A stretch of DNA of 64,000 nucleotides from a virus (taxonomy: Duplodnaviria > Caudoviricetes), in IMG/VR virus record IMGVR_UViG_3300037067_004728, positions 1 to 64,000 of that record; one strand, given 5' to 3'. The notes beneath the pieces are model-generated. The model did no database searches. It worked only from the letters and a program-made list of their open reading frames with translations, and was not told where the DNA came from. The number at the start of each line of letters is the position of its first letter. Within the stretch, counting starts at the first letter, position 1. A program made the translations under genes and the position numbers. Below, in pieces: positions 13,792 to 59,012 of the stretch.

Positions 13792-13814
13792 AACTCATCA
13801 GCCCTTCGGGGCGT

Positions 13815-39212: not shown

Positions 39213-40009
39213 TGGATTATCCTCGCGTGATTCATATTGAAACAACCGGACGATGCAATTCACATTGCGTATTTTGTCCACACAGTCGGTCATACCGACG
39301 ACTGATGGATATGCCACAAATATTGTTTGAGAAAATTTTAAAGGATGTAAAAGATATACCACAACGAGTTATTATTGTACCTTTAAAACTTGGCGAACCA
39401 CTTGTGGACCCATTATTTTCAAAACGCTTGCTACAAATTGATGAACAGCTACCAGAGGCTTATTTAGAATTGCATACAAACCTTAATATATTACCACGCG
39501 AGTTTATTCCAACACTTAGAAAGTTACGGCGTGTTAATCACATCTGGGTGTCATTGAATTATTATACGGCAGCGAGTTACCAAGCGGCTACCGGAATGAA
39601 ATTTGACCAAACCCTGTACAACATTAAAAAGTTATTGGAAGCCCGACTACCACATACGATTGCCATTGGACGGGTTTTAGATTACACCATCGAGGACCAA
39701 AAATGGTTAGATTGGGTTAGACGCACTTTTCCACAAGCTAAACCGGCATTTTTACATCGTGGAGATTGGTGCAATAATATTGAAACACCAAATACTATCA
39801 ATGATGGATTTTGTAAGCGTACACTTGAAGTGTCTATTTGCTGTGATGGTAAGGTCGCACTTTGTTGTATGGATGGGTTGTGTGAATACCCATTAGGAGA
39901 TATAACTAAAGAGCATATTTTAGAGGTTTATAATGGGTCAAAAGCGAGCGCCCTGCGTCGTATGACACAGAGGTTACAAGAACCCTGTGCCTCTTGTACT
40001 TTTGTCTAA
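39212..40009 (+). CDS. Radical SAM enzyme with SPASM/twitch domain
   Basis: CNSHCVFC, GEP, C...DGKVALCC.D...LGDI...CASC. Confidence 0.92.
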   Translation: MDYPRVIHIETTGRCNSHCVFCPHSRSYRRLMDMPQILFEKILKDVKDIPQRVIIVPLKLGEPLVDPLFSKRLLQIDEQLPEAYLELHTNLNILPREFIPTLRKLRRVNHIWVSLNYYTAASYQAATGMKFDQTLYNIKKLLEARLPHTIAIGRVLDYTIEDQKWLDWVRRTFPQAKPAFLHRGDWCNNIETPNTINDGFCKRTLEVSICCDGKVALCCMDGLCEYPLGDITKEHILEVYNGSKASALRRMTQRLQEPCASCTFV

Positions 40010-40022
40010 GGAGGCGACAAAT

Positions 40023-41276
40023 ATGTGGGAATTTTTAACGACTCAACTTGCTAATAATCAATTCTTATCCGGCGGTGCGGTACTAGCCATTTTTGGTGGA
40101 TTAGCATTATATCTACGAAGTATCCCTTCATATATTTTTACGTGGACAAAACATCGTTTAATTACAGAAATTGATATTCCAGATCGTGACGAAGCCTTCA
40201 AGTGGATGAATGTTTGGTTGTCTCAACATCCTTATAAAAAGCGTTGCCGTTGGTGGACGGTTCAAACACGTCGTCAAAGAGATTATGACGAAGGGCCAGG
40301 AGATTCACGGGAACGAAAGAAACCGAAGATTATTTTATCACCTGCCCCCGGCTTGCATTTTTTGTTTTATAAACAGAAGTTAATGATTTTGTATCGTGAA
40401 CGAAAAGATACTCAAGGTAAGGGTGACACGGCGGCATTAGGTTTTCGTGAAACTTTTACCATCAAGTTATTTAGCCGTAACAAACAAGTTGTTTATGATT
40501 TGATTGAAGAAGCAAGACTTGCTGCGCATCCAGTCGATTCAGAACGACTAAGGATTTTACGTCCTGACTATAATGAGTGGTGTGAAATTACAAAAAGATT
40601 ACTACGCCCATTCAAATCTGTCATTCTGGATAATGACCTCAGTGGTAGAATCCTACAAGATGTTAAACAGTTTATTGAGTCAGAAAAATGGTATAATGAA
40701 ATAGGTATACCATATCGTCGTGGGTATTTACTTTCTGGCCCTCCTGGTAACGGTAAAAGTTCATTAGTTACTGCAATTGCATCAGAGTTACGTCTTGATA
40801 TTTGTACCTTAAATTTAAGTAACCATAGTCTAAATGACGAAAAACTTGTGGAACTTATGGCGAATGTTCCAATGAATAGTTTAGTTTTAATCGAGGATGT
40901 TGACTGTGTATTCCATGAGCGCAAAAAGGTGGATGATAGTGAAAGTGTTACCTTTTCTGGTTTACTGAATGCAATTGATGGTGTAATGTCTAGTGAGGGC
41001 CGGATTTTATTTATGACAACCAATCATAAAGAAGTGCTGGACCCCGCTCTGATCCGCCCAGGTCGAGTTGATGTAGACATAACAATCGACAATGCATCAA
41101 GGGCACAGGCCAGTAATTTATTCCTTAGATTCTTTCCTGATATGCCTGATCTGGCTGAGGGCTTTGGTGATAAAATGACAAAAACGTCAGTAAGCATGGC
41201 ACAATTGCAAGGGCATTTGTTAAAATATCGGCACGATGCAATCTCGGCCTTGACTTACCCCGTAAATGAGGTATAA
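40023..41276 (+). CDS. BCS1-like AAA+ ATPase
   Basis: N-terminal TM, BCS1_N-like ILSPAPGLHFLFY...ETFTI; WY..IGIPYRRGYLL.GPPGNGKSS, IEDVD, TFSGLLNAIDG, MTTNH...LDPALIRPGRVD. Confidence 0.9.
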   Translation: MWEFLTTQLANNQFLSGGAVLAIFGGLALYLRSIPSYIFTWTKHRLITEIDIPDRDEAFKWMNVWLSQHPYKKRCRWWTVQTRRQRDYDEGPGDSRERKKPKIILSPAPGLHFLFYKQKLMILYRERKDTQGKGDTAALGFRETFTIKLFSRNKQVVYDLIEEARLAAHPVDSERLRILRPDYNEWCEITKRLLRPFKSVILDNDLSGRILQDVKQFIESEKWYNEIGIPYRRGYLLSGPPGNGKSSLVTAIASELRLDICTLNLSNHSLNDEKLVELMANVPMNSLVLIEDVDCVFHERKKVDDSESVTFSGLLNAIDGVMSSEGRILFMTTNHKEVLDPALIRPGRVDVDITIDNASRAQASNLFLRFFPDMPDLAEGFGDKMTKTSVSMAQLQGHLLKYRHDAISALTYPVNEV

Positions 41277-41281
41277 TTGTA

Positions 41282-42136
41282 ATGATGAAGCGTCTTTTAA
41301 TAGCCTTGATTATTTTTCTGCCAAATGTTGTATTTGCACAACAGGCTGATGAATTAAAGAAACACGTTGAGTACCTAGCGTCCCCTGAATTGGATGGACG
41401 ACAAGTTGGTACAGCCGGATGTGATAAAGCAGCGGAGTATATTATACAGCAATTAAAGGTATTTGGTTATACCCCAGAAGAACAACCATTTACCATGCAA
41501 CGAGTAACAGCAAAAAATGTAATTGCGGTGCGTAAAGGCAGCCTTGATACGGTAATTGTTGTAGGTGCCCATTATGACCACCTGGGACGCCGTGGTAATC
41601 GCTATTACCCTGGGGCCGATGATAATGCCTCTGGCACAGCAGCGGTTTTAGAGCTATCTAGGATGCTTAAAACGAGTCGGCGAACCATTGTGTTTATACT
41701 ATTCTCTGGGGAAGAGGATGGTTTATATGGTTCGACCTACTATGTAAAGCATCCTAAATATCCAAATGATAAAACGATATTTATGCTTAATCTTGATATG
41801 ATTGGGTATTTACGGCGCGATACACAAGCCTACGTACCAGATGTTCATAAAATATTGAAAGAGTTGTATATCCAATATCCGTGGGCACCGTCCATAGTTA
41901 TTTTGGGTGGTACGGCCAGCGACCAAGAACCTTTTGCAGATATTGGCATACCAGTTGCTTTCTTACATACTGGTTTGCATGGCAATTACCATAGAACAAC
42001 CGATACACCAGATAAACTTAATTATAAAGGAATGGAGCAGATTGTACGCTTTTCGTATGATTTGATTAAAGCCCTTGACACCCACGATTTACCAGACTAC
42101 AATATTACAGGAGTAAAGTATGAGCCAGTCAAGTGA
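41282..42136 (+). CDS. Secreted M28 family aminopeptidase
   Basis: Signal peptide; GAHYDH, GADDNASG, GEE.GL.GS, NLDM, YH...D. Confidence 0.9.
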   Translation: MMKRLLIALIIFLPNVVFAQQADELKKHVEYLASPELDGRQVGTAGCDKAAEYIIQQLKVFGYTPEEQPFTMQRVTAKNVIAVRKGSLDTVIVVGAHYDHLGRRGNRYYPGADDNASGTAAVLELSRMLKTSRRTIVFILFSGEEDGLYGSTYYVKHPKYPNDKTIFMLNLDMIGYLRRDTQAYVPDVHKILKELYIQYPWAPSIVILGGTASDQEPFADIGIPVAFLHTGLHGNYHRTTDTPDKLNYKGMEQIVRFSYDLIKALDTHDLPDYNITGVKYEPVK

Positions 42137-47536: not shown

Positions 47537-47564
47537 TTGACAACGATAAAATTCATGCTAAAGT
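47537..47564 (+). promoter_or_regulatory. Sigma70-type promoter TTGACA-N16-TAAAGT (extended TG)
   Basis: ATG lies 6 nt after the -10 box. Confidence 0.8.
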
Positions 47565-47570
47565 TGTAGT

Positions 47571-48107
47571 ATGAAGATACTCAAACGTCGTTTATCCAGT
47601 GGTTTCGTCAAGTATCCGAAAGATTTTGATAGGCGTATTATTGATGGAACCGCCCGGTTTCGTACAAAATGCGATATGCTTGTCGGACCTTGTGCTTGTG
47701 GAGGCGTTCATCAAGAACATGACGATTGGGTCCAACAGCTATTAGGGGATAATGACGCTGTTATTGAGCCATTGATGCTGGCCCCAGAAGAATCTGGAAT
47801 CATACTCATCCCACGGTATTGGTTGAGGCCACGCGGCCACGAGCGTTGTACGGTATTGTCAGGACGATGTGCTTGTGGACGTAATCATACTGCCAACGAG
47901 CGCTGGGTTGTTGACTTGCTTGCGAGTCATGGGGCTAAACTTATTGGATGTAAAGAAGTAGATTTGCCGCCTGTAGGTGACGTGGCTAATGAAATAAACG
48001 AGTACGATGATGCTGGTGGAGCGACTATTGGATGCCCGTGCGAAAATTGTCAGCATCGTAGACAAAATGCTCGATTCGGGCGACGATTAAATCGGAGTCA
48101 GATTTAA
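47571..48107 (+). CDS. Protein with a duplicated C-x6-CACG-x2-H metal-binding repeat
   Basis: CDMLVGPCACGGVH...W and CTVLSGRCACGRNH...W; C-terminal CPCENC. Confidence 0.7.
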   Translation: MKILKRRLSSGFVKYPKDFDRRIIDGTARFRTKCDMLVGPCACGGVHQEHDDWVQQLLGDNDAVIEPLMLAPEESGIILIPRYWLRPRGHERCTVLSGRCACGRNHTANERWVVDLLASHGAKLIGCKEVDLPPVGDVANEINEYDDAGGATIGCPCENCQHRRQNARFGRRLNRSQI

Positions 48108-48409
48108 TGCGATTGCAAGAATTTATGGTTGAATATCCGCAAGATGTAAAGCGGATGAAAACACAAATTATTAGTATGACAAAAATTTTCAGCGTTCTTG
48201 AAATGAAGGACGGTGAGGTTTTTGTAGAAACTGAGGATACGGATGAAGAAGGGGTTACTACTATTGAAGTATTACGTAGTAGGGATAGAACCCACTTCAC
48301 GATAGTATGGCGTGAGCGTAAGGGGGTTGAGCATAATGAAATGCGATCATACCCCCGTGATAATCAATTCCCTCTTTTTAGTGTTGTAAGACTTAATGCC
48401 AGTATTTAG
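48107..48409 (+). CDS. Hypothetical protein
   Basis: TAATG-coupled 100-aa ORF. Confidence 0.55.
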   Translation: MRLQEFMVEYPQDVKRMKTQIISMTKIFSVLEMKDGEVFVETEDTDEEGVTTIEVLRSRDRTHFTIVWRERKGVEHNEMRSYPRDNQFPLFSVVRLNASI

Positions 48410-49700
48410 TAGAACATATCGTCGCCCGGCAAACCATGATCCACGACCAGTTTTTATGCGCCCGGATGCAGAAATCCGTCGTGAAGATGTGGTCTTTGAA
48501 ACCGTAGATCGACATTTTGATATTAGTTGGGATCAGCCAACCGATGAAGTAGCCCTTATTTTTGATCGTGACCACCCGGAAAACAGACCAATTATGTGCC
48601 GGGCTAGTGCAGGAGATTTTGCGGCGATTGAGCGAGAAATTTATCGGCTGATGGATGAAGAACGTGCCAATGAGGACCGCCAACGCCATCATTCTTGGTT
48701 CCACGGCGTTGATGTGGGCCGTGATCCCCAGTTGATCGAACATACATTTTATGGCCCAGACTCTCATGCCGATCAATTTCATAGAGAGTACATGGCAGAA
48801 CCGCTTGAAGAAGTCCCTGCGGTTACTCCTGGTTTGATTGAAGAACAGGAACGTCGAGCTAGGGACGATTACCGACGATTCATGGACAATTATATTGCCA
48901 ATCGCCTTAATATACCATCGCCAACACAACCTGCCCCTAATGCTCAAAATCTAACGCCTGGGGCCGAAGTATTTTCGCATTGGGTGTCGGACGAATCCTC
49001 TAGTGTTAGCGGGTCGTTGGTACAGCAATTAGCTCGAATGGACCGTGATAGAGAGACTCAGAGGCAGCGAACACGTCGGAACCGTAATTATTTGACATGG
49101 ATGCCATATAGTAGCTATCGTAAGTGTGCAGCTTGTTTTGAAGATTCTGATCTAAAGCACATGCGAGTTAATATACTGCGAACATTACGATACCTTGAAC
49201 GTAATTCTCGGCCAACACGGCACAAGGCGGTTGAACTGTGGCGCGGTTTTGAACAGTCACTAATTAGATATGGGATTGCAATTGCCTTAGAATGTCGTCA
49301 AAGAGGTTTTAGTGACACGTCATTAGTTACCTTACGATCAAAGTACCGGCACGGCTATAGTCAAAAGCCGGATTGGGTTTATTGGACCGACTTACAAGAA
49401 TCACATCGGGCCTATTTACTGTTACGTAATGAACGCCGATTTGCTGTTAAATTGTTAGGTCACTATGCTCGTCGAACAGTAACAGAATGGTGTAGTCATC
49501 GAGATTTCTGTCACAATATTGGAATCCGTGCCAAGCGTGAGTGGACGGTAGATGATATAAACACTATTCGTCATGTTATGGGGGATGTTAGTGGCGGAAA
49601 TATAAATCTTGTAAATGATAATTTTTATCGTCAGTATGGATGGACTCAAGAACCAACTGAGTCTTTCCGCTATCCACAGGATAATTTATGCTCAGCATAG
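48396..49700 (+). CDS. Acidic N-terminal region fused to a pyrimidine-dimer-glycosylase-like (MSMEG_6728-type) domain
   Basis: TWMPY...H.AV.LWRGFE..L..YG.A...E...RGF.DT...KPDW...SHR..LL. Confidence 0.65.
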   Translation: MPVFSRTYRRPANHDPRPVFMRPDAEIRREDVVFETVDRHFDISWDQPTDEVALIFDRDHPENRPIMCRASAGDFAAIEREIYRLMDEERANEDRQRHHSWFHGVDVGRDPQLIEHTFYGPDSHADQFHREYMAEPLEEVPAVTPGLIEEQERRARDDYRRFMDNYIANRLNIPSPTQPAPNAQNLTPGAEVFSHWVSDESSSVSGSLVQQLARMDRDRETQRQRTRRNRNYLTWMPYSSYRKCAACFEDSDLKHMRVNILRTLRYLERNSRPTRHKAVELWRGFEQSLIRYGIAIALECRQRGFSDTSLVTLRSKYRHGYSQKPDWVYWTDLQESHRAYLLLRNERRFAVKLLGHYARRTVTEWCSHRDFCHNIGIRAKREWTVDDINTIRHVMGDVSGGNINLVNDNFYRQYGWTQEPTESFRYPQDNLCSA

Positions 49701-50080
49701 GAATGTTAGTCGAGTTTATTAAAGACCTTCGCGGGATAGTCCCTGAACCTGCGAGAAGTGAAATTGCTCATCGGCTGGGGGATTTAATTTCAAATGTTTT
49801 AAGAAACGCCGATAATGATAATTACCGTCGGTGGGTGTCCGAAGATAGACTGCGATTTCTGCGGCATTGTGAGCTAGTCAATCTTGATCGTTGGGTGCCG
49901 GATGATTTATATATTGAACCTACGGTATTGGCTGAATTTTGCAATCGGTGGATGAGTTGCAATCTCTTCAAAATTCGTAATGACCCCTCAGCAGAGTGGA
50001 AGCCAATTACTCCCGAAATGAATGGATTACGTGTAACAATGATCGAGGAACTACGTTCACTTGACAAGGCGGGAAAATAG
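49688..50080 (+). CDS. Hypothetical protein
   Basis: 130-aa ORF; AGGA upstream. Confidence 0.55.
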   Translation: MLSIGMLVEFIKDLRGIVPEPARSEIAHRLGDLISNVLRNADNDNYRRWVSEDRLRFLRHCELVNLDRWVPDDLYIEPTVLAEFCNRWMSCNLFKIRNDPSAEWKPITPEMNGLRVTMIEELRSLDKAGK

Positions 50081-50088
50081 TGTATAGT
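50061..50088 (+). promoter_or_regulatory. Sigma70-type promoter TTGACA-N16-TATAGT
   Basis: Lies 8 nt before ATG 50097. Confidence 0.8.
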
Positions 50089-50096
50089 TATGGTAT

Positions 50097-50450
50097 ATGA
50101 CTTTACCCGATTTAGTAACGCAGAAGTTAAGCGGGCTGTCCGCCCCAGCCGCTTACGATCTCTTAGCAGCCCTGGGACATGCCAATGTGTTCATTTATTT
50201 ACAGGGGCAGCTAGTGGTGGTGAAGGATTGGGTCAAGGACGACGAAGTGGCATGGTTGCCAGCGAACAACACACCAGAGACCACCTTCTGGGGAGGTCCA
50301 CCAACCAAATTGGGGTACTACCAAGGGAACCTTTACATATTGTTACTGGACAGGATTTACGATTACTTATTAACACACACTTTGGGCGAACTCTATCAGA
50401 CGATGGGGATAACGCCGAAGCAAAGGACATTTCAATGGTTGTCCGCGTAA
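50097..50450 (+). CDS. FxGGPP-family paralog 1
   Basis: KLSGLSAPAAYDLL...FWGGPPTKLGYYQGNLYILLLDRI. Confidence 0.8.
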   Translation: MTLPDLVTQKLSGLSAPAAYDLLAALGHANVFIYLQGQLVVVKDWVKDDEVAWLPANNTPETTFWGGPPTKLGYYQGNLYILLLDRIYDYLLTHTLGELYQTMGITPKQRTFQWLSA

Positions 50451-50791
50451 CAAATAAAAATCCGACACTATACACCGCCCTACGTGAGAAGCTAAGCAAA
50501 TTATCGGCAGCCCGCGCGGTTAATTACCTAAATTATAGTTTTGATGCGGGCTTTGAAGAAATAGAAATCAACGGAGTTAAATCAACGCCAGTAGCATTGA
50601 TGAGTGATTTGCCCGGATTGCAAACTGTATTGGCCTGTGAAGTTGCCCCTCTTTCATTTTGGGGTGGTCCCCCTGGGAAGCGAACTTGGTATGATGGCAG
50701 CCTTTTAACACTTCTAGCCGATCATATCATGCGAGCCGCCGATGCAGGCAATTTAGCATTGCTAGGGCGGTTTCTGAATCTAACAATATGA
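50435..50791 (+). CDS. FxGGPP-family paralog 2
   Basis: ATG 50435 after AAGGA; KLSKLSAARAVNYL...FWGGPPGKRTWYDGSLLTLLADHI. Confidence 0.8.
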   Translation: MVVRVTNKNPTLYTALREKLSKLSAARAVNYLNYSFDAGFEEIEINGVKSTPVALMSDLPGLQTVLACEVAPLSFWGGPPGKRTWYDGSLLTLLADHIMRAADAGNLALLGRFLNLTI

Positions 50792-51147
50792 AAAAGAATC
50801 ATTTGAAACAGGCCGAAGCATTAGTCGGCCATTTTAAGCCGATTGACTTGGACTGTGCTTATACATTGGCGTATGCCCTGGGGCATCAAGATACAGATGT
50901 ACTCTTAATGACACCCAATGTGCGAACAACAGTGCGCCAGATTTATGCAGGAACGGCCCCTGGCTGTCCTGCGGATCGGATTCATATTCAATTTTATGGT
51001 GGTCCTGTGGGTCATGGGGCTTGGTATACTGGTACTATCTACAGTTTTATTTTAGATATTGTTGCCGCAAAGATTCAAATGGAAGGCTTTGAAAGGGTAC
51101 GACAATTATTGAGACTAAGACGCCAATCTGGATGTCCGCCATTCTAG
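50788..51147 (+). CDS. FxGGPP-family paralog 3
   Basis: FYGGPVGHGAWYTGTIYSFILDIV. Confidence 0.8.
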   Translation: MKKNHLKQAEALVGHFKPIDLDCAYTLAYALGHQDTDVLLMTPNVRTTVRQIYAGTAPGCPADRIHIQFYGGPVGHGAWYTGTIYSFILDIVAAKIQMEGFERVRQLLRLRRQSGCPPF

Positions 51148-51494
51148 CAACTTTGTATTCATCGTTAGGTAATTTAACGGTGATTCAATTTGTACAGAAT
51201 ATGCGTGAATTGAATTCTATGGATGATACATTGACTATTCCTGCTTTCAAAGGTAATGGTCGCTGTTCAGTTTGGGAATTAGGTACTGTTTCATTTGGAT
51301 TGGCAAAAGCCCGAACTATTCCATGTCGTTTTTATGGTGGACCGCCACATAATAGAGCAATGTATACTGGAACACTATTAACTATGTTTATTGATAGATT
51401 GCTTACAACTGCTTTAGAACGTAATTTCAATGTAATCGACAAATTCGTCCCCGCTGAAATCCCTGATGGCCCAGCAATGGGTTGGATTGGTTGA
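51132..51494 (+). CDS. FxGGPP-family paralog 4
   Basis: FYGGPPHNRAMYTGTLLTMFIDRL. Confidence 0.8.
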   Translation: MSAILATLYSSLGNLTVIQFVQNMRELNSMDDTLTIPAFKGNGRCSVWELGTVSFGLAKARTIPCRFYGGPPHNRAMYTGTLLTMFIDRLLTTALERNFNVIDKFVPAEIPDGPAMGWIG

Positions 51495-51518
51495 CAATCT
51501 TCTTTTGTGTGCTATTAT
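51491..51518 (+). promoter_or_regulatory. Sigma70-type promoter TTGACA-N16-TATTAT (extended TG)
   Basis: ATG 51525 lies 6 nt after the -10 box. Confidence 0.8.
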
Positions 51519-51524
51519 TAAGGT

Positions 51525-51872
51525 ATGGCGATTGACAGCAATCTTTTAAATGAACTTTCGGAAATAAGTGCAGAAGATGCCATCGAATTACTTTGCACTG
51601 AATTTGGTTTGGGTCGCTCTTGGATAACCTTTGTCAATACTCATAATAGAGCGGAAGTCAAATCATTTTTAGGCGCGATTTATTTACGTGGTATAGCGGC
51701 GGCGGATGTTGGACCAATTGAATTTTGGGGTGGGCCTCCGACTCGAAAAGGGTATCAAAAAGGTACGCTATTAACTTATCTTTGTGACGCGATTCTTTTA
51801 CACTGGGCAATCGAAGGTAATTACGCGGATATGGTTCAAGGAACACATGAAGATCAACTTTACGTTACTTAA
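51525..51872 (+). CDS. FxGGPP-family paralog 5
   Basis: ELSEISAEDAIELLC...FWGGPPTRKGYQKGTLLTYLCDAI. Confidence 0.8.
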   Translation: MAIDSNLLNELSEISAEDAIELLCTEFGLGRSWITFVNTHNRAEVKSFLGAIYLRGIAAADVGPIEFWGGPPTRKGYQKGTLLTYLCDAILLHWAIEGNYADMVQGTHEDQLYVT

Positions 51873-52176
51873 AAACCGTTTTGGTGACATATCCGCATTA
51901 GATGCTCTTGAACTGCTTTGTTGGACCTTTGGAGCAGATAAGGCATATATAACCGTTGATGGTATGCGTATGCCATTAGTCGATTTATATGATGATACTG
52001 GAATGTTTACTTGGAAAGCATCGGATGTTGACCTTCAATTTTATGGAGGACCGCCACCTGCAAAATGGTGGGATGGTACACTTTTAACTATGCTTCTGGA
52101 TCATTTTCTCTATGCTTATTCTAAAAATGATTTGGTCAAGGTACATAAAGCCTTGAAAGTACATGCGACCGTTTGA
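51847..52176 (+). CDS. FxGGPP-family paralog 6
   Basis: ATG 51847 after AAGGA; RFGDISALDALELLC...FYGGPPPAKWWDGTLLTMLLDHF. Confidence 0.8.
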   Translation: MKINFTLLKNRFGDISALDALELLCWTFGADKAYITVDGMRMPLVDLYDDTGMFTWKASDVDLQFYGGPPPAKWWDGTLLTMLLDHFLYAYSKNDLVKVHKALKVHATV

Positions 52177-52504
52177 AGATTATCAACGTGAATTTGCAGA
52201 TTTGTCAGCCGGTGACGCCATTACAATTCTGTCAGAAATGGGTGTGGAAAAAGATCGGATTATTATACAAAGCCCGTCGGGCAACGTAATGACAACGCCA
52301 ATGAAATTATGTTTCAAACTGCCTTATAATTACCCTGCCAGAGAGGTAGGACCAATTCAATTTTGTGGCGGTCCACCTGGACAATATAACTGGATCGAAG
52401 GCTCATTAACTACAATGGTTATGGATCATGTTATGCACCATGATGCAACCGAAGAACAAAAATCTCGTCTTTATGGCACAAAAATTGCAGGGTTAGGCTG
52501 CTAA
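52163..52504 (+). CDS. FxGGPP-family paralog 7
   Basis: EFADLSAGDAITIL...FCGGPPGQYNWIEGSLTTMVMDHV. Confidence 0.8.
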   Translation: MRPFEDYQREFADLSAGDAITILSEMGVEKDRIIIQSPSGNVMTTPMKLCFKLPYNYPAREVGPIQFCGGPPGQYNWIEGSLTTMVMDHVMHHDATEEQKSRLYGTKIAGLGC

Positions 52505-52668
52505 ATGGGACACACATTTCGTCGAAACAGTGATTACGGGTATAAGCACGATTACCGTGAACGCAATGAGCGTAAGTTGAAGAAATACAACAAACGGTTG
52601 CGAAAAGTCACCAATCAAAAACGTATTACCTTCACTCCACCCCCACAAGAGGGACAGGAGTTAGTGTA

Positions 52669-53379
52669 ATGTGTCGTTATATATCAGTCAATAGTGGAAT
52701 TGGAAGTTTTGATTTAGCTTTACAGAGACTTCATAGTTGGACACCAGCTTGTTATGTGGAAAAGAATACCAGAAACATTGAGACACTCATCCAGAGATTC
52801 CGCGATGATACGATCCAAGATGCTCCAATCTGGGATGATTTCGCCACATTCGACGGGCGACCTTGGCGTGGATGCGTGGATTGCATTGCTGGCGTCGAAT
52901 TGGCCGAAATTGACAGCGAATCCCGCGAGTGTTCTACAGCATCTTCAAATAAACTCATTAGTCTTACAAAAGAAGTGGAACCGAGCCACATCCTCTGGCA
53001 ATTCTCATCTGCGACTAAAGCGGAGGCAGTCGCAAGTGCGGATTATCTCGCCAACGGGCTTGAAATTCTTGGCTACCGCACGGCAATTCTCAAAGTGCGG
53101 TCGAGTGATTTGGGCGCTGACCATAGACGGACTAGATTGTTTGTCTGCGCAGAAATGGCGAACACCCAACCAGCAAATGGCGGGGAACGAATCGAGGAAA
53201 TCGACGAACGCCTGTCAACACCTTGCCGAGCAACTAGGTGGACTTCCGCACCCCGAATTTGTCGAAGAACTGATGGGATTACCGATAGGATGGAGCGCCT
53301 TGACGCACTTGGACGAAGCACGATACCGGCAATGGTCTCAGCGGTTTCGACGATTCTCGATGCAGGAATTGTGTTTTAA
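52669..53379 (+). CDS. C5-cytosine DNA methyltransferase-like protein lacking catalytic motifs
   Basis: SGIG, IWDD..TFDG.PWRG.VD, GA.H.R.RLF and RLDALG retained; PC (motif IV) and ENV (motif VI) absent. Confidence 0.7.
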   Translation: MCRYISVNSGIGSFDLALQRLHSWTPACYVEKNTRNIETLIQRFRDDTIQDAPIWDDFATFDGRPWRGCVDCIAGVELAEIDSESRECSTASSNKLISLTKEVEPSHILWQFSSATKAEAVASADYLANGLEILGYRTAILKVRSSDLGADHRRTRLFVCAEMANTQPANGGERIEEIDERLSTPCRATRWTSAPRICRRTDGITDRMERLDALGRSTIPAMVSAVSTILDAGIVF

Positions 53380-53412
53380 TGGACCAAACTGGGCAATAAA
53401 TAGGCGGCACTA

Positions 53413-53736
53413 ATGCGATGCGATCAATTTGCGGGATTACCTGATGATGCGGTAAAGTTTCTCAATGAGAATACGAAACCACCAATTATCTGCCCAACAT
53501 GCAATTGTGTTCGACCAGTTCAAATAGATGTAGTTGGGCACTATGCGGGTATGTTTGGCGATAATTATGATTTGCACCGTCATAAGTTAAATGATGGTGG
53601 GTATGCGGACGAGTATGTACAGGCAGCACCCTGGTCTAGTGGGCCAGTATTTTTTATAGGGCTGCATGTGTATGATAAACATGGTGTTCTTAGGCATAGT
53701 TTTCTGTGGTCTGAGGACGAAATTTGCAATGCTTAG
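53413..53736 (+). CDS. Hypothetical protein
   Basis: CPTC; EYVQAAPWSSGPVFFIGL. Confidence 0.6.
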   Translation: MRCDQFAGLPDDAVKFLNENTKPPIICPTCNCVRPVQIDVVGHYAGMFGDNYDLHRHKLNDGGYADEYVQAAPWSSGPVFFIGLHVYDKHGVLRHSFLWSEDEICNA

Positions 53737-58984: not shown

Positions 58985-59012
58985 TTGACAAGTGCCGATA
59001 GTATGGTAGAAT
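58985..59012 (+). promoter_or_regulatory. Sigma70-type promoter TTGACA-N16-TAGAAT (extended TG)
   Basis: ATG 59019 lies 6 nt after the -10 box. Confidence 0.8.

Follow-up and report, generated by a model that had tools for sequence, protein, structure and literature searches.

A run of seven small, diverged paralogous genes in an uncultured phage raises a simple question: are these independent proteins, each with a target of its own, or the parts of one assembly? The locus lies in IMG/VR virus record IMGVR_UViG_3300037067_004728 (Caudoviricetes; 105,376 bp, here G000, completeness estimate 79%), the first 64 kb of which constitute the window analyzed. An earlier note, written from the sequence letters, had pointed out the array at 50097-52504 and offered both possibilities. 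We report that the array, together with a dispersed eighth copy, is an ancient set fixed in number and order and held under purifying selection, and that selection also keeps a second reading frame open over the first copy. We tentatively favor the view that the eight proteins are subunits of a single hetero-oligomer.

Eight paralogs with a common FxGGPP core

Copies 1 to 7 are head-to-tail open reading frames (ORFs) of 109 to 120 residues occupying positions 50097-52504 on the + strand, and an eighth, more diverged copy lies 6.5 kb downstream of the tandem block:

50097..50450, + strand: c1, 117 residues; an orthologue clade in the tree described below
50435..50791, + strand: c2, 118 residues; the most conserved type, with motif RAVNYLNYSFD
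50788..51147, + strand: c3, 119 residues; basic
51132..51494, + strand: c4, 120 residues
51525..51872, + strand: c5, 115 residues; acidic; fused in frame to c6 in lineage L016
51847..52176, + strand: c6, 109 residues from the ATG at 51847, a start with which its orthologues agree
52163..52504, + strand: c7, 113 residues
59019..59441, + strand: c8, 140 residues; dispersed paralog with motif FKGGPGP; E-value 9e-24 against the 32-copy profile

The earlier note had described seven small paralogous ORFs sharing an F-x-G-G-P...G...D pattern, and our results agree in coordinates and strand. Copies c1 to c7 align end to end, with invariant residues F64, G66, G67, P68, G77 and D85 (c1 numbering), and all 21 pairs among them are significant in BLASTP (E-values from 1e-15 to 4e-4). 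Each of these six residues is kept in at least 90% of 111 diverse family members. At the DNA level, repeats are limited to the stretches coding for FxGGPP and GTLLT, in line with the note's remark that no obvious DNA repeat is present. The note's checklist spoke of eight copies, and c8 is indeed a real eighth paralog, whose closest copy in the tree is c3. A scan of the 105,376-bp record for further copies beyond c1-c8 found none.

Within the block, neighboring copies overlap by 16, 4, 16, 26 and 14 nucleotides (nt), the sole gap being the 30 nt that separate c4 from c5. A clear Shine-Dalgarno sequence is absent at most starts in the block.

Positional orthology across lineages

To count copies in relatives, contigs from other samples were scanned with a hidden Markov model (HMM) independently of reading frame. 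Seven tandem copies and one dispersed copy are present in the window and in lineages L008, L013, L011/L012 and L016. Lineage L018 has seven tandem copies, and its DNA does not reach the position of the eighth. In six lineages (window, L008, L013, L011, L016 and L018), the same seven copies occur in the same order with positional orthology. L015 also carries seven tandem copies, and L014 shows a 5+2 layout.

We built a maximum-likelihood tree from 32 copies of four lineages (window, L008, L013 and L011, the branches of L011 being long). The eight positional groups require seven label changes on this tree, the minimum, and none of 200 shuffles matches this figure. Bootstrap support for c1 to c4 and c6 as single clades is 75-97%. 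Class models were then built from the four tree lineages, with L016 and L018 held out: every copy of the two held-out lineages was assigned to the class of the same number, by margins of 45-150 bits. Among 189 database matches, 144 fall clearly in classes c1 to c7, with 12-38 per class. Each paralog is thus retained as a distinct orthologue across lineages, as in paralog sets that form hetero-oligomers.

The order of the surrounding module is shared by contigs from other samples as well: a 178-residue gene, a 100-residue gene, a protein with a glycosylase-like domain, a 130-residue gene, the array, a 54-residue basic gene and a C5-methyltransferase-like gene. On a contig shared by L016 and L019 (L016:10753-11400), c5 and c6 are fused in frame into a 215-residue protein (P0190), in which the C-terminal tail of c5 is shortened. 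This fusion is recorded in JGI, Logan and ENA assemblies.

Evolutionary rates and paralog-specific surfaces

Between the window and L008, the ratio of non-synonymous to synonymous substitution rates (dN/dS) is 0.06-0.08 for c2-c4 and c6-c8; it is not estimable for c5, because synonymous sites are saturated. Orthologues of the window copies are 77-87% identical in L008 (67% for c1), 51-56% in L013 and 26-43% in L011 (local alignment). These identities match those of flanking conserved genes. The eight copies are under purifying selection, ancient and fixed as a set.

The earlier note had envisaged a conserved scaffold carrying a variable specificity loop. The first part holds, as the core formed by the FxGGPP hairpin and the following helix is shared by all copies. 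The second part needs rewording: the segments in which paralogs differ are conserved among the orthologues of any one position. Within orthologues, conservation is 0.5-0.9 per column over the full length, and across paralogs it is low outside the core. Charge follows the same rule; across the window, L008, L013 and L011, every c3 is basic and every c5 acidic. We found none of the accessory distribution, rapid turnover and fast evolution that characterize anti-defense arrays. Such slow, core-like evolution argues against an array engaged in an arms race.

Promoters and predicted transcripts

Three consensus promoters head copies of the family:

50061..50088, + strand: P1, TTGACA-N16-TATAGT with an extended -10 TG; c1 ATG 8 nt past the -10; 11 of 12 consensus positions matched
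51491..51518, + strand: P2, TTGACA-N16-TATTAT with an extended -10 TG; c5 ATG 6 nt past the -10; 11 of 12 matched
58985..59012, + strand: P3, TTGACA-N16-TAGAAT; c8 ATG 6 nt past the -10

P1 and P2, which the note had already singled out, are the best sigma-70-like sites of the region, and the internal P2 divides the tandem block into groups of four and three. P1 is kept upstream of c1 in L008, L013, L011, L016 and L018. P2 is kept in L008, L016 and L011 and absent in L013, and P3 is kept in L013, L011, L016 and L008. The pattern TTGACA-N15-18-TANNNT-N5-9-ATG has five matches in the window, against 0.43 expected, and three of the four matches on the + strand head c1, c5 and c8.

With 6-8 nt between the end of the -10 element and the start codons of c1, c5 and c8, the mRNAs are predicted to be leaderless or nearly so; the P1 transcript would be leaderless or carry a 2-nt leader. 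Consensus sigma-70 promoters are compatible with expression by the host RNA polymerase, probably early in infection.

Over the whole record, a slightly relaxed pattern, TTGAC(A/T)-N15-18-TANNNT with an ATG 5-9 nt later, has 19 sites on the + strand between 41 and 104 kb, and none on this strand in the first 41 kb. Members inside the window lie at 41250, 47537, 50061, 51491 and 58985. Most of the 19 sites have the extended -10 TG and exactly 6 nt to the ATG. They represent a genome-wide class of consensus promoters whose transcripts are predicted to be leaderless.

An overlapping frame held open over c1

The region upstream of c2 contains a second, longer ORF that runs through the whole of c1:

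49688..50080, + strand: conserved 130-residue gene that directly precedes the array; found upstream of it in each of the eight lineages examined; not a paralog
50090..50791, + strand: long-form ORF of copy 2, 233 residues; starts at an ATG 7 nt before the c1 ATG and runs through c1 into c2

The frame of c2 is +2 relative to c1. In the window, L008, L013 and L011, not a single stop codon interrupts this +2 frame over the length of c1, and L016 and L018 also have it open; in the other copies, the corresponding frame has 3-17 stops. We resampled synonymous codons while holding the c1 protein constant in five lineages. Between 5.7 and 8.3 stops are expected, and the probability of observing none ranges from less than 5e-5 to 8e-4 per lineage. 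Furthermore, every lineage has an ATG in the +2 frame 4 or 7 nt before the c1 ATG. With an open frame and an upstream ATG, gene callers therefore report a protein of 226-236 residues in relatives. At least 11 database clusters (179-261 residues) have a c2-type domain after the peptide LGR(A/S)T, which is the +2-frame shadow of FWGGPPT. The rates of c1 itself fit this picture: its dN/dS is 0.27 between the window and L008, with lower synonymous and higher non-synonymous divergence, the expected signature of double constraint. Selection thus keeps the overlapping frame over c1 free of stops, a new finding of this analysis.

The predicted second product is a 226-236-residue long form of c2 with a polar, poorly conserved, overprinted N-terminal extension. 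The alternative-frame peptide is 24% identical between the window and L013, versus 55% for c1, its alignment scores to L011 are negative, and it has no conserved charge. Because the peptide is so poorly conserved, we reject a functional alternative-frame protein maintained for its sequence. Programmed frameshifting at c1/c2 was rejected as well: by eye, no slippery heptamer is seen, and frameshifting does not need a whole open frame.

How might ribosomes reach the upstream ATG? It lies only 2-4 nt past the -10 element of P1, so that it should be missing from P1 transcripts and reachable solely by read-through. Nine nt separate the stop codon of the 130-residue gene from the start of the overlapping ORF. 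On read-through transcripts, ribosomes leaving this gene could restart at the ATG located 4-7 nt before that of c1 and read the stop-free frame straight into c2, producing the long form.

It is quite possible, however, that the open frame has no product of its own to deliver, and only carries restarting ribosomes into c2, so that premature release and polarity are avoided. This would suit a peptide that is far less conserved than c1, a block with few clear Shine-Dalgarno sequences, and the recurrence of the layout at other junctions: a downstream frame is also open at c3/c4 in L011 (L011:8005-8697) and at copies 4/5 in L015 (L015:5531-6181), and c3-like long forms occur in the database (P0136, P0138 and P0187). 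Against such a relay, the conserved upstream ATG, if harmful, could simply have been lost. Since a long polypeptide would be made either way, "no product" here really means a product whose function does not depend on its sequence.

A family without known relatives

The earlier note did not recognize the family, and none of the library and fold searches that we tried gave a match. Searched with the eight copies, Pfam, PHROGs v4, NCBIfam 20 and PADLOC-DB 2 returned chance-level rows only, at E-values up to 0.1-1. The same four libraries gave no match to the 233-residue long ORF or to the upstream 130-residue protein, and Pfam no meaningful match to the 111 aligned family members. In a sequence-profile search of the PDB, with profiles of 7 and 111 sequences, the best E-values were 0.08-0.6, for unrelated chains.

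An AlphaFold2 model computed with the 111-sequence alignment is confident, with a predicted local distance difference test score (pLDDT) of 94 and a predicted template modeling score (pTM) of 0.84. It comprises helices at residues 5-12 and 16-25, a hairpin at 32-41, two short helices, a second hairpin at 62-77 and helices at 79-91 and 96-103. FxGGPP is located at the turn of the second hairpin and the invariant aspartate in the next helix. We compared this model and an earlier one (pLDDT 84.6) with known structures. Foldseek found nothing in the PDB at E-values up to 1e-3 for either model, nor any match in BFVD for the earlier model, the only one compared there. An exhaustive VIA-align search with both models reached a best Z of 4.5, under the chance level of this tool (best Z of 7-8 for unmatched models); a second look with VIA produced no fold match. 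In the ESM Atlas, scores were under lead level or no usable match was obtained. These negative results do not establish a new fold. The GGPP family is a previously undescribed alpha/beta domain of about 110 residues.

In a metagenome database, the profile of seven copies retrieves 332 representatives of 50%-identity clusters at E-values up to 1e-3 (139 at up to 1e-10), and synteny is kept in relatives. All named database matches are labeled "hypothetical". No match to the array was found in the DNA or protein of 50,697 deposited phage genomes. For locus searches in prokaryote genomes and contigs, orthologues of copy 2 served as the query; species-representative prokaryote genomes yielded one 11-residue match, which proved false. 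A search for larger proteins, fused or multi-domain and 246 residues or longer, found none, which is weak evidence, and a literature search by accession returned nothing. The DNA polymerase of the phage shares only about 25% identity with its counterparts in Enterococcus and Thermus phages. The family is confined to uncultured phages, and this phage is remote from cultured ones. One relative was binned in a metagenome-assembled genome of "Candidatus Uhrbacteria"; we did not adopt this taxon as host, the binning being regarded as unreliable.

Genomic neighborhood

The surroundings of the array consist of genes for replication, nucleotide metabolism and DNA modification, not structural genes. 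Its neighbors include a pyrimidine-dimer-glycosylase-like domain, a C5-methyltransferase-like gene and a Dam-like methyltransferase. These and other features of the region are as follows:

39987-42136, + strand: BCS1-like AAA ATPase (BCS1_N, AAA and lid; E-value 2e-31), followed by an M28 peptidase
47571-48107, + strand: 178-residue protein with an internal duplication of C-x-C-G-x2-H ... W; leaderless-class promoter at 47537
48396-49700, + strand: 434-residue protein matching Pfam Pyr_excise over residues 234-310 (E-value 9e-8)
52505..52669, + strand: 54-residue, very basic gene; starts right after the c7 stop and is kept in L008, L013 and L016
52669-53379, + strand: C5-methyltransferase-like gene, 236 residues
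52754-53413, + strand: ORF in the +1 frame of the methyltransferase-like gene, 219 residues
59899-60505, + strand: tRNA cluster directly after c8 (Tyr-GTA, Asn-GTT and Ile-TAT); a tRNA-Met lies at 13814

Wherever the DNA of a lineage extends far enough upstream of the array (that of L013 stops short), the 178-residue gene is kept. The 434-residue glycosylase-like protein diverges much faster than its neighbors, with 49% identity to L008 versus 77-91%. The pair formed by the BCS1-like ATPase and the M28 peptidase, about 9 kb upstream of the array, is kept in L008 and L016; mitochondrial Bcs1 is a heptamer. Apart from tRNAs, no Rfam family was detected between 46 and 64 kb.

The methyltransferase-like gene also has an overlapping frame. 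Its +1 frame is open over nearly the whole length in five lineages, against 10-19 stops in the +2 frame. Synonymous divergence (pS) between the window and L008 is 0.19, versus 0.53-0.77 in neighbors. Residues 166-196 of the +1-frame ORF match small PHROGs whose function is not known (E-value 6e-6), and the catalytic Pro-Cys motif seems, by eye, to be missing from the frame-0 protein. The region 52669-53413 could correspond to dual coding or to a frameshifted methyltransferase.

Subunits of one assembly or independent proteins?

The note had left two alternatives open, a hetero-oligomer and a diversifying set of anti-defense proteins. The latter is disfavored by the fixed order and by dN/dS values of 0.06-0.08. 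Fixed number and order, positional orthology, purifying selection, paralog-specific surfaces, gene overlap and occasional fusion are the pattern expected of a hetero-oligomer. Our preferred, still tentative, reading is that the eight proteins are non-redundant subunits of one such assembly, the formation of which we infer. Host RNA polymerase would make the leaderless mRNAs of c1, c5 and c8. Copies c1 to c7 would then be expressed from a single block of overlapping genes, with predicted translational coupling and a 4+3 division set by the internal promoter. The shared FxGGPP core could give all subunits a common packing geometry, and the paralog-specific surfaces, conserved among orthologues, would decide which subunit sits beside which.

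Several points weigh against this reading. Hints of physical association come solely from gene overlap, predicted coupling and the c5-c6 fusion, the latter seen in one lineage only. A fixed number and purifying selection would be equally expected if each copy bound a different conserved host protein. The most distant lineages, L014 and L015, hold seven copies, but their recognizable types are c1- and c2-like only. Instead of serving a function, the long form of c2 may simply be a by-product that the phage tolerates. Expression, its timing and the transcription start sites are predictions, and the use of sigma-70 promoters and leaderless translation are read from the consensus.

The principal rival holds that the copies are independent small binders or inhibitors, each directed against a different host protein for host takeover or counter-defense. 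The proteins are small and devoid of enzymatic signature, they combine a conserved scaffold with paralog-specific regions, and their genes lie among small ORFs with consensus promoters of the host type, close to DNA methyltransferases, which are typical anti-restriction cargo. Known counter-defense loci, however, evolve rapidly and differ in gene content from one related phage to another. The GGPP copies keep their number, order and orthology even in lineages where identity has fallen to about 26-43%, and they diverge no faster than neighboring conserved genes, at the low dN/dS given above. PADLOC gives no match either, though it covers defense rather than anti-defense proteins. We consider independent binders somewhat unlikely. 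A role of the same proteins in the virion, as internal, ejected or minor structural components present in several diverged copies, appears very improbable: some phages do have families of small internal proteins, and a coupled operon would fit high stoichiometric expression, but the array is set among replication, nucleotide-metabolism and DNA-modification genes rather than structural ones, its promoters are of the host-type consensus and not those of a late-gene setting, and no structural PHROG is matched.

The near-invariant F, G, G, P, G and D may also be read as a pocket, the Gly-Gly-Pro loop and the aspartate binding a ligand such as a nucleotide or a modified base with a specificity that differs between paralogs; the proteins would then be enzymes or ligand-binding proteins, and could act as sponges or accessory factors of the adjoining DNA-modification enzymes. 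The glycosylase-like domain and the C5-methyltransferase-like and Dam-like genes nearby would suit such a role. It is nonetheless quite improbable, as searches by sequence and fold turned up no similarity to enzymes or ligand-binding families, the positions of the invariant residues, at the turn of a hairpin and the start of a helix, fit a purely structural role just as well, and eight specialized pockets in fixed order would be unusual. As to the biochemical role of the set, the DNA-modification and DNA-repair setting, together with a weak likeness of the N-terminal helix pair to SAP/HeH domains, provides the only contextual hint.

Significance

The GGPP family is large and unannotated, with at least 332 clusters at 50% identity and a confident predicted fold that has no match in PDB or viral structures. 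Its eight slow-evolving paralogs in fixed order are unlike the usual small-gene arrays of phages, which are variable and evolve fast, and this fixed-set pattern points to a multi-subunit machine in large uncultured phages. The frame held open over c1 is a clean case of overprinting (P at most 8e-4 for every one of the five lineages resampled), and a second possible case adjoins it in the methyltransferase-like gene. The module is a natural system for the study of overprinting, leaderless expression and translational coupling. Since the genes are short, soluble-looking and preceded by E. coli-like promoters, the hetero-oligomer hypothesis is testable without culturing the host.

Comparison with known systems

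A tandem array of small alpha+beta paralogs that have diverged and share a Gly-rich strand-loop motif brings to mind SUKH and poly-immunity arrays and the anti-defense arrays of phages. The GGPP array differs in its fixed number, order and orthology and in its slow evolution. No Pfam match to SUKH or another immunity family was found among the 111 members, and no SUKH chain appeared in the fold-search listings, an absence that carries little weight by itself. With no profile or fold support and a locus that is fixed rather than variable, a SUKH/SMI1-KNR4 immunity-like array was rejected.

The N-terminal helix pair, L-x2-L-S-A-x2-A-x2-L-L-x3-G, resembles the SAP/HeH motif, and VIA gave weak matches (Z of 2.8-3.5) to the SAP domains of FAN1 and PIAS1, the Rho N-terminal domain and LEM. 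These cover about 45-57 residues at noise-level Z, and Pfam SAP and HeH models match none of the proteins even at E-values up to 1. We did not adopt a SAP/HeH identity, given the noise-level Z and the negative Pfam result. Death-fold domains (DD, DED, CARD and PYD) are the top structural neighbors and account for about half of the top 50 VIA rows; the best example, the FADD DD (6aci_H), superimposes with a Z of 4.5 and a root mean square deviation of 3.1 over 69 residues, below the noise level of the tool. Death-fold domains themselves form hetero-oligomers built from paralogous domains. The GGPP model, however, has two beta-hairpins in place of helices 3-4, and no sequence signal relates the two. 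With Z at noise level, a death-fold identity was not adopted.

As an analogy of evolutionary pattern only, the closest parallel is the Sm/LSm family, the eukaryotic members of which form hetero-heptameric rings: in both cases, seven or eight small, ancient paralogs, each a distinct orthologue, combine a core motif with paralog-specific surfaces. The folds differ, since Sm proteins consist of one helix and a bent five-stranded sheet and the GGPP domain of six helices and two hairpins. There is no sequence or fold match, and a ring or RNA binding by the GGPP set would be analogy only. One may go further and imagine an early-expressed hetero-heptamer or hetero-octamer of new fold, a viral parallel to Sm/LSm rings or death-fold hubs that arose by duplication. 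One of its subunits would also be made as a long form through the frame overprinted on its neighbor, and promoter choice would thereby set the composition. We regard this extension as unlikely.

The overlapping frame, finally, recalls overprinted viral genes encoded on the same strand. There as here, a second frame is held by selection on the synonymous sites of an existing gene, and the polar, poorly conserved product is typical of de novo overprinting. Two traits set the phage arrangement apart: instead of forming a gene of its own, the overprinted segment extends the following paralog at its N-terminus in the same reading frame, and other lineages show this layout again at other junctions between paralogs.

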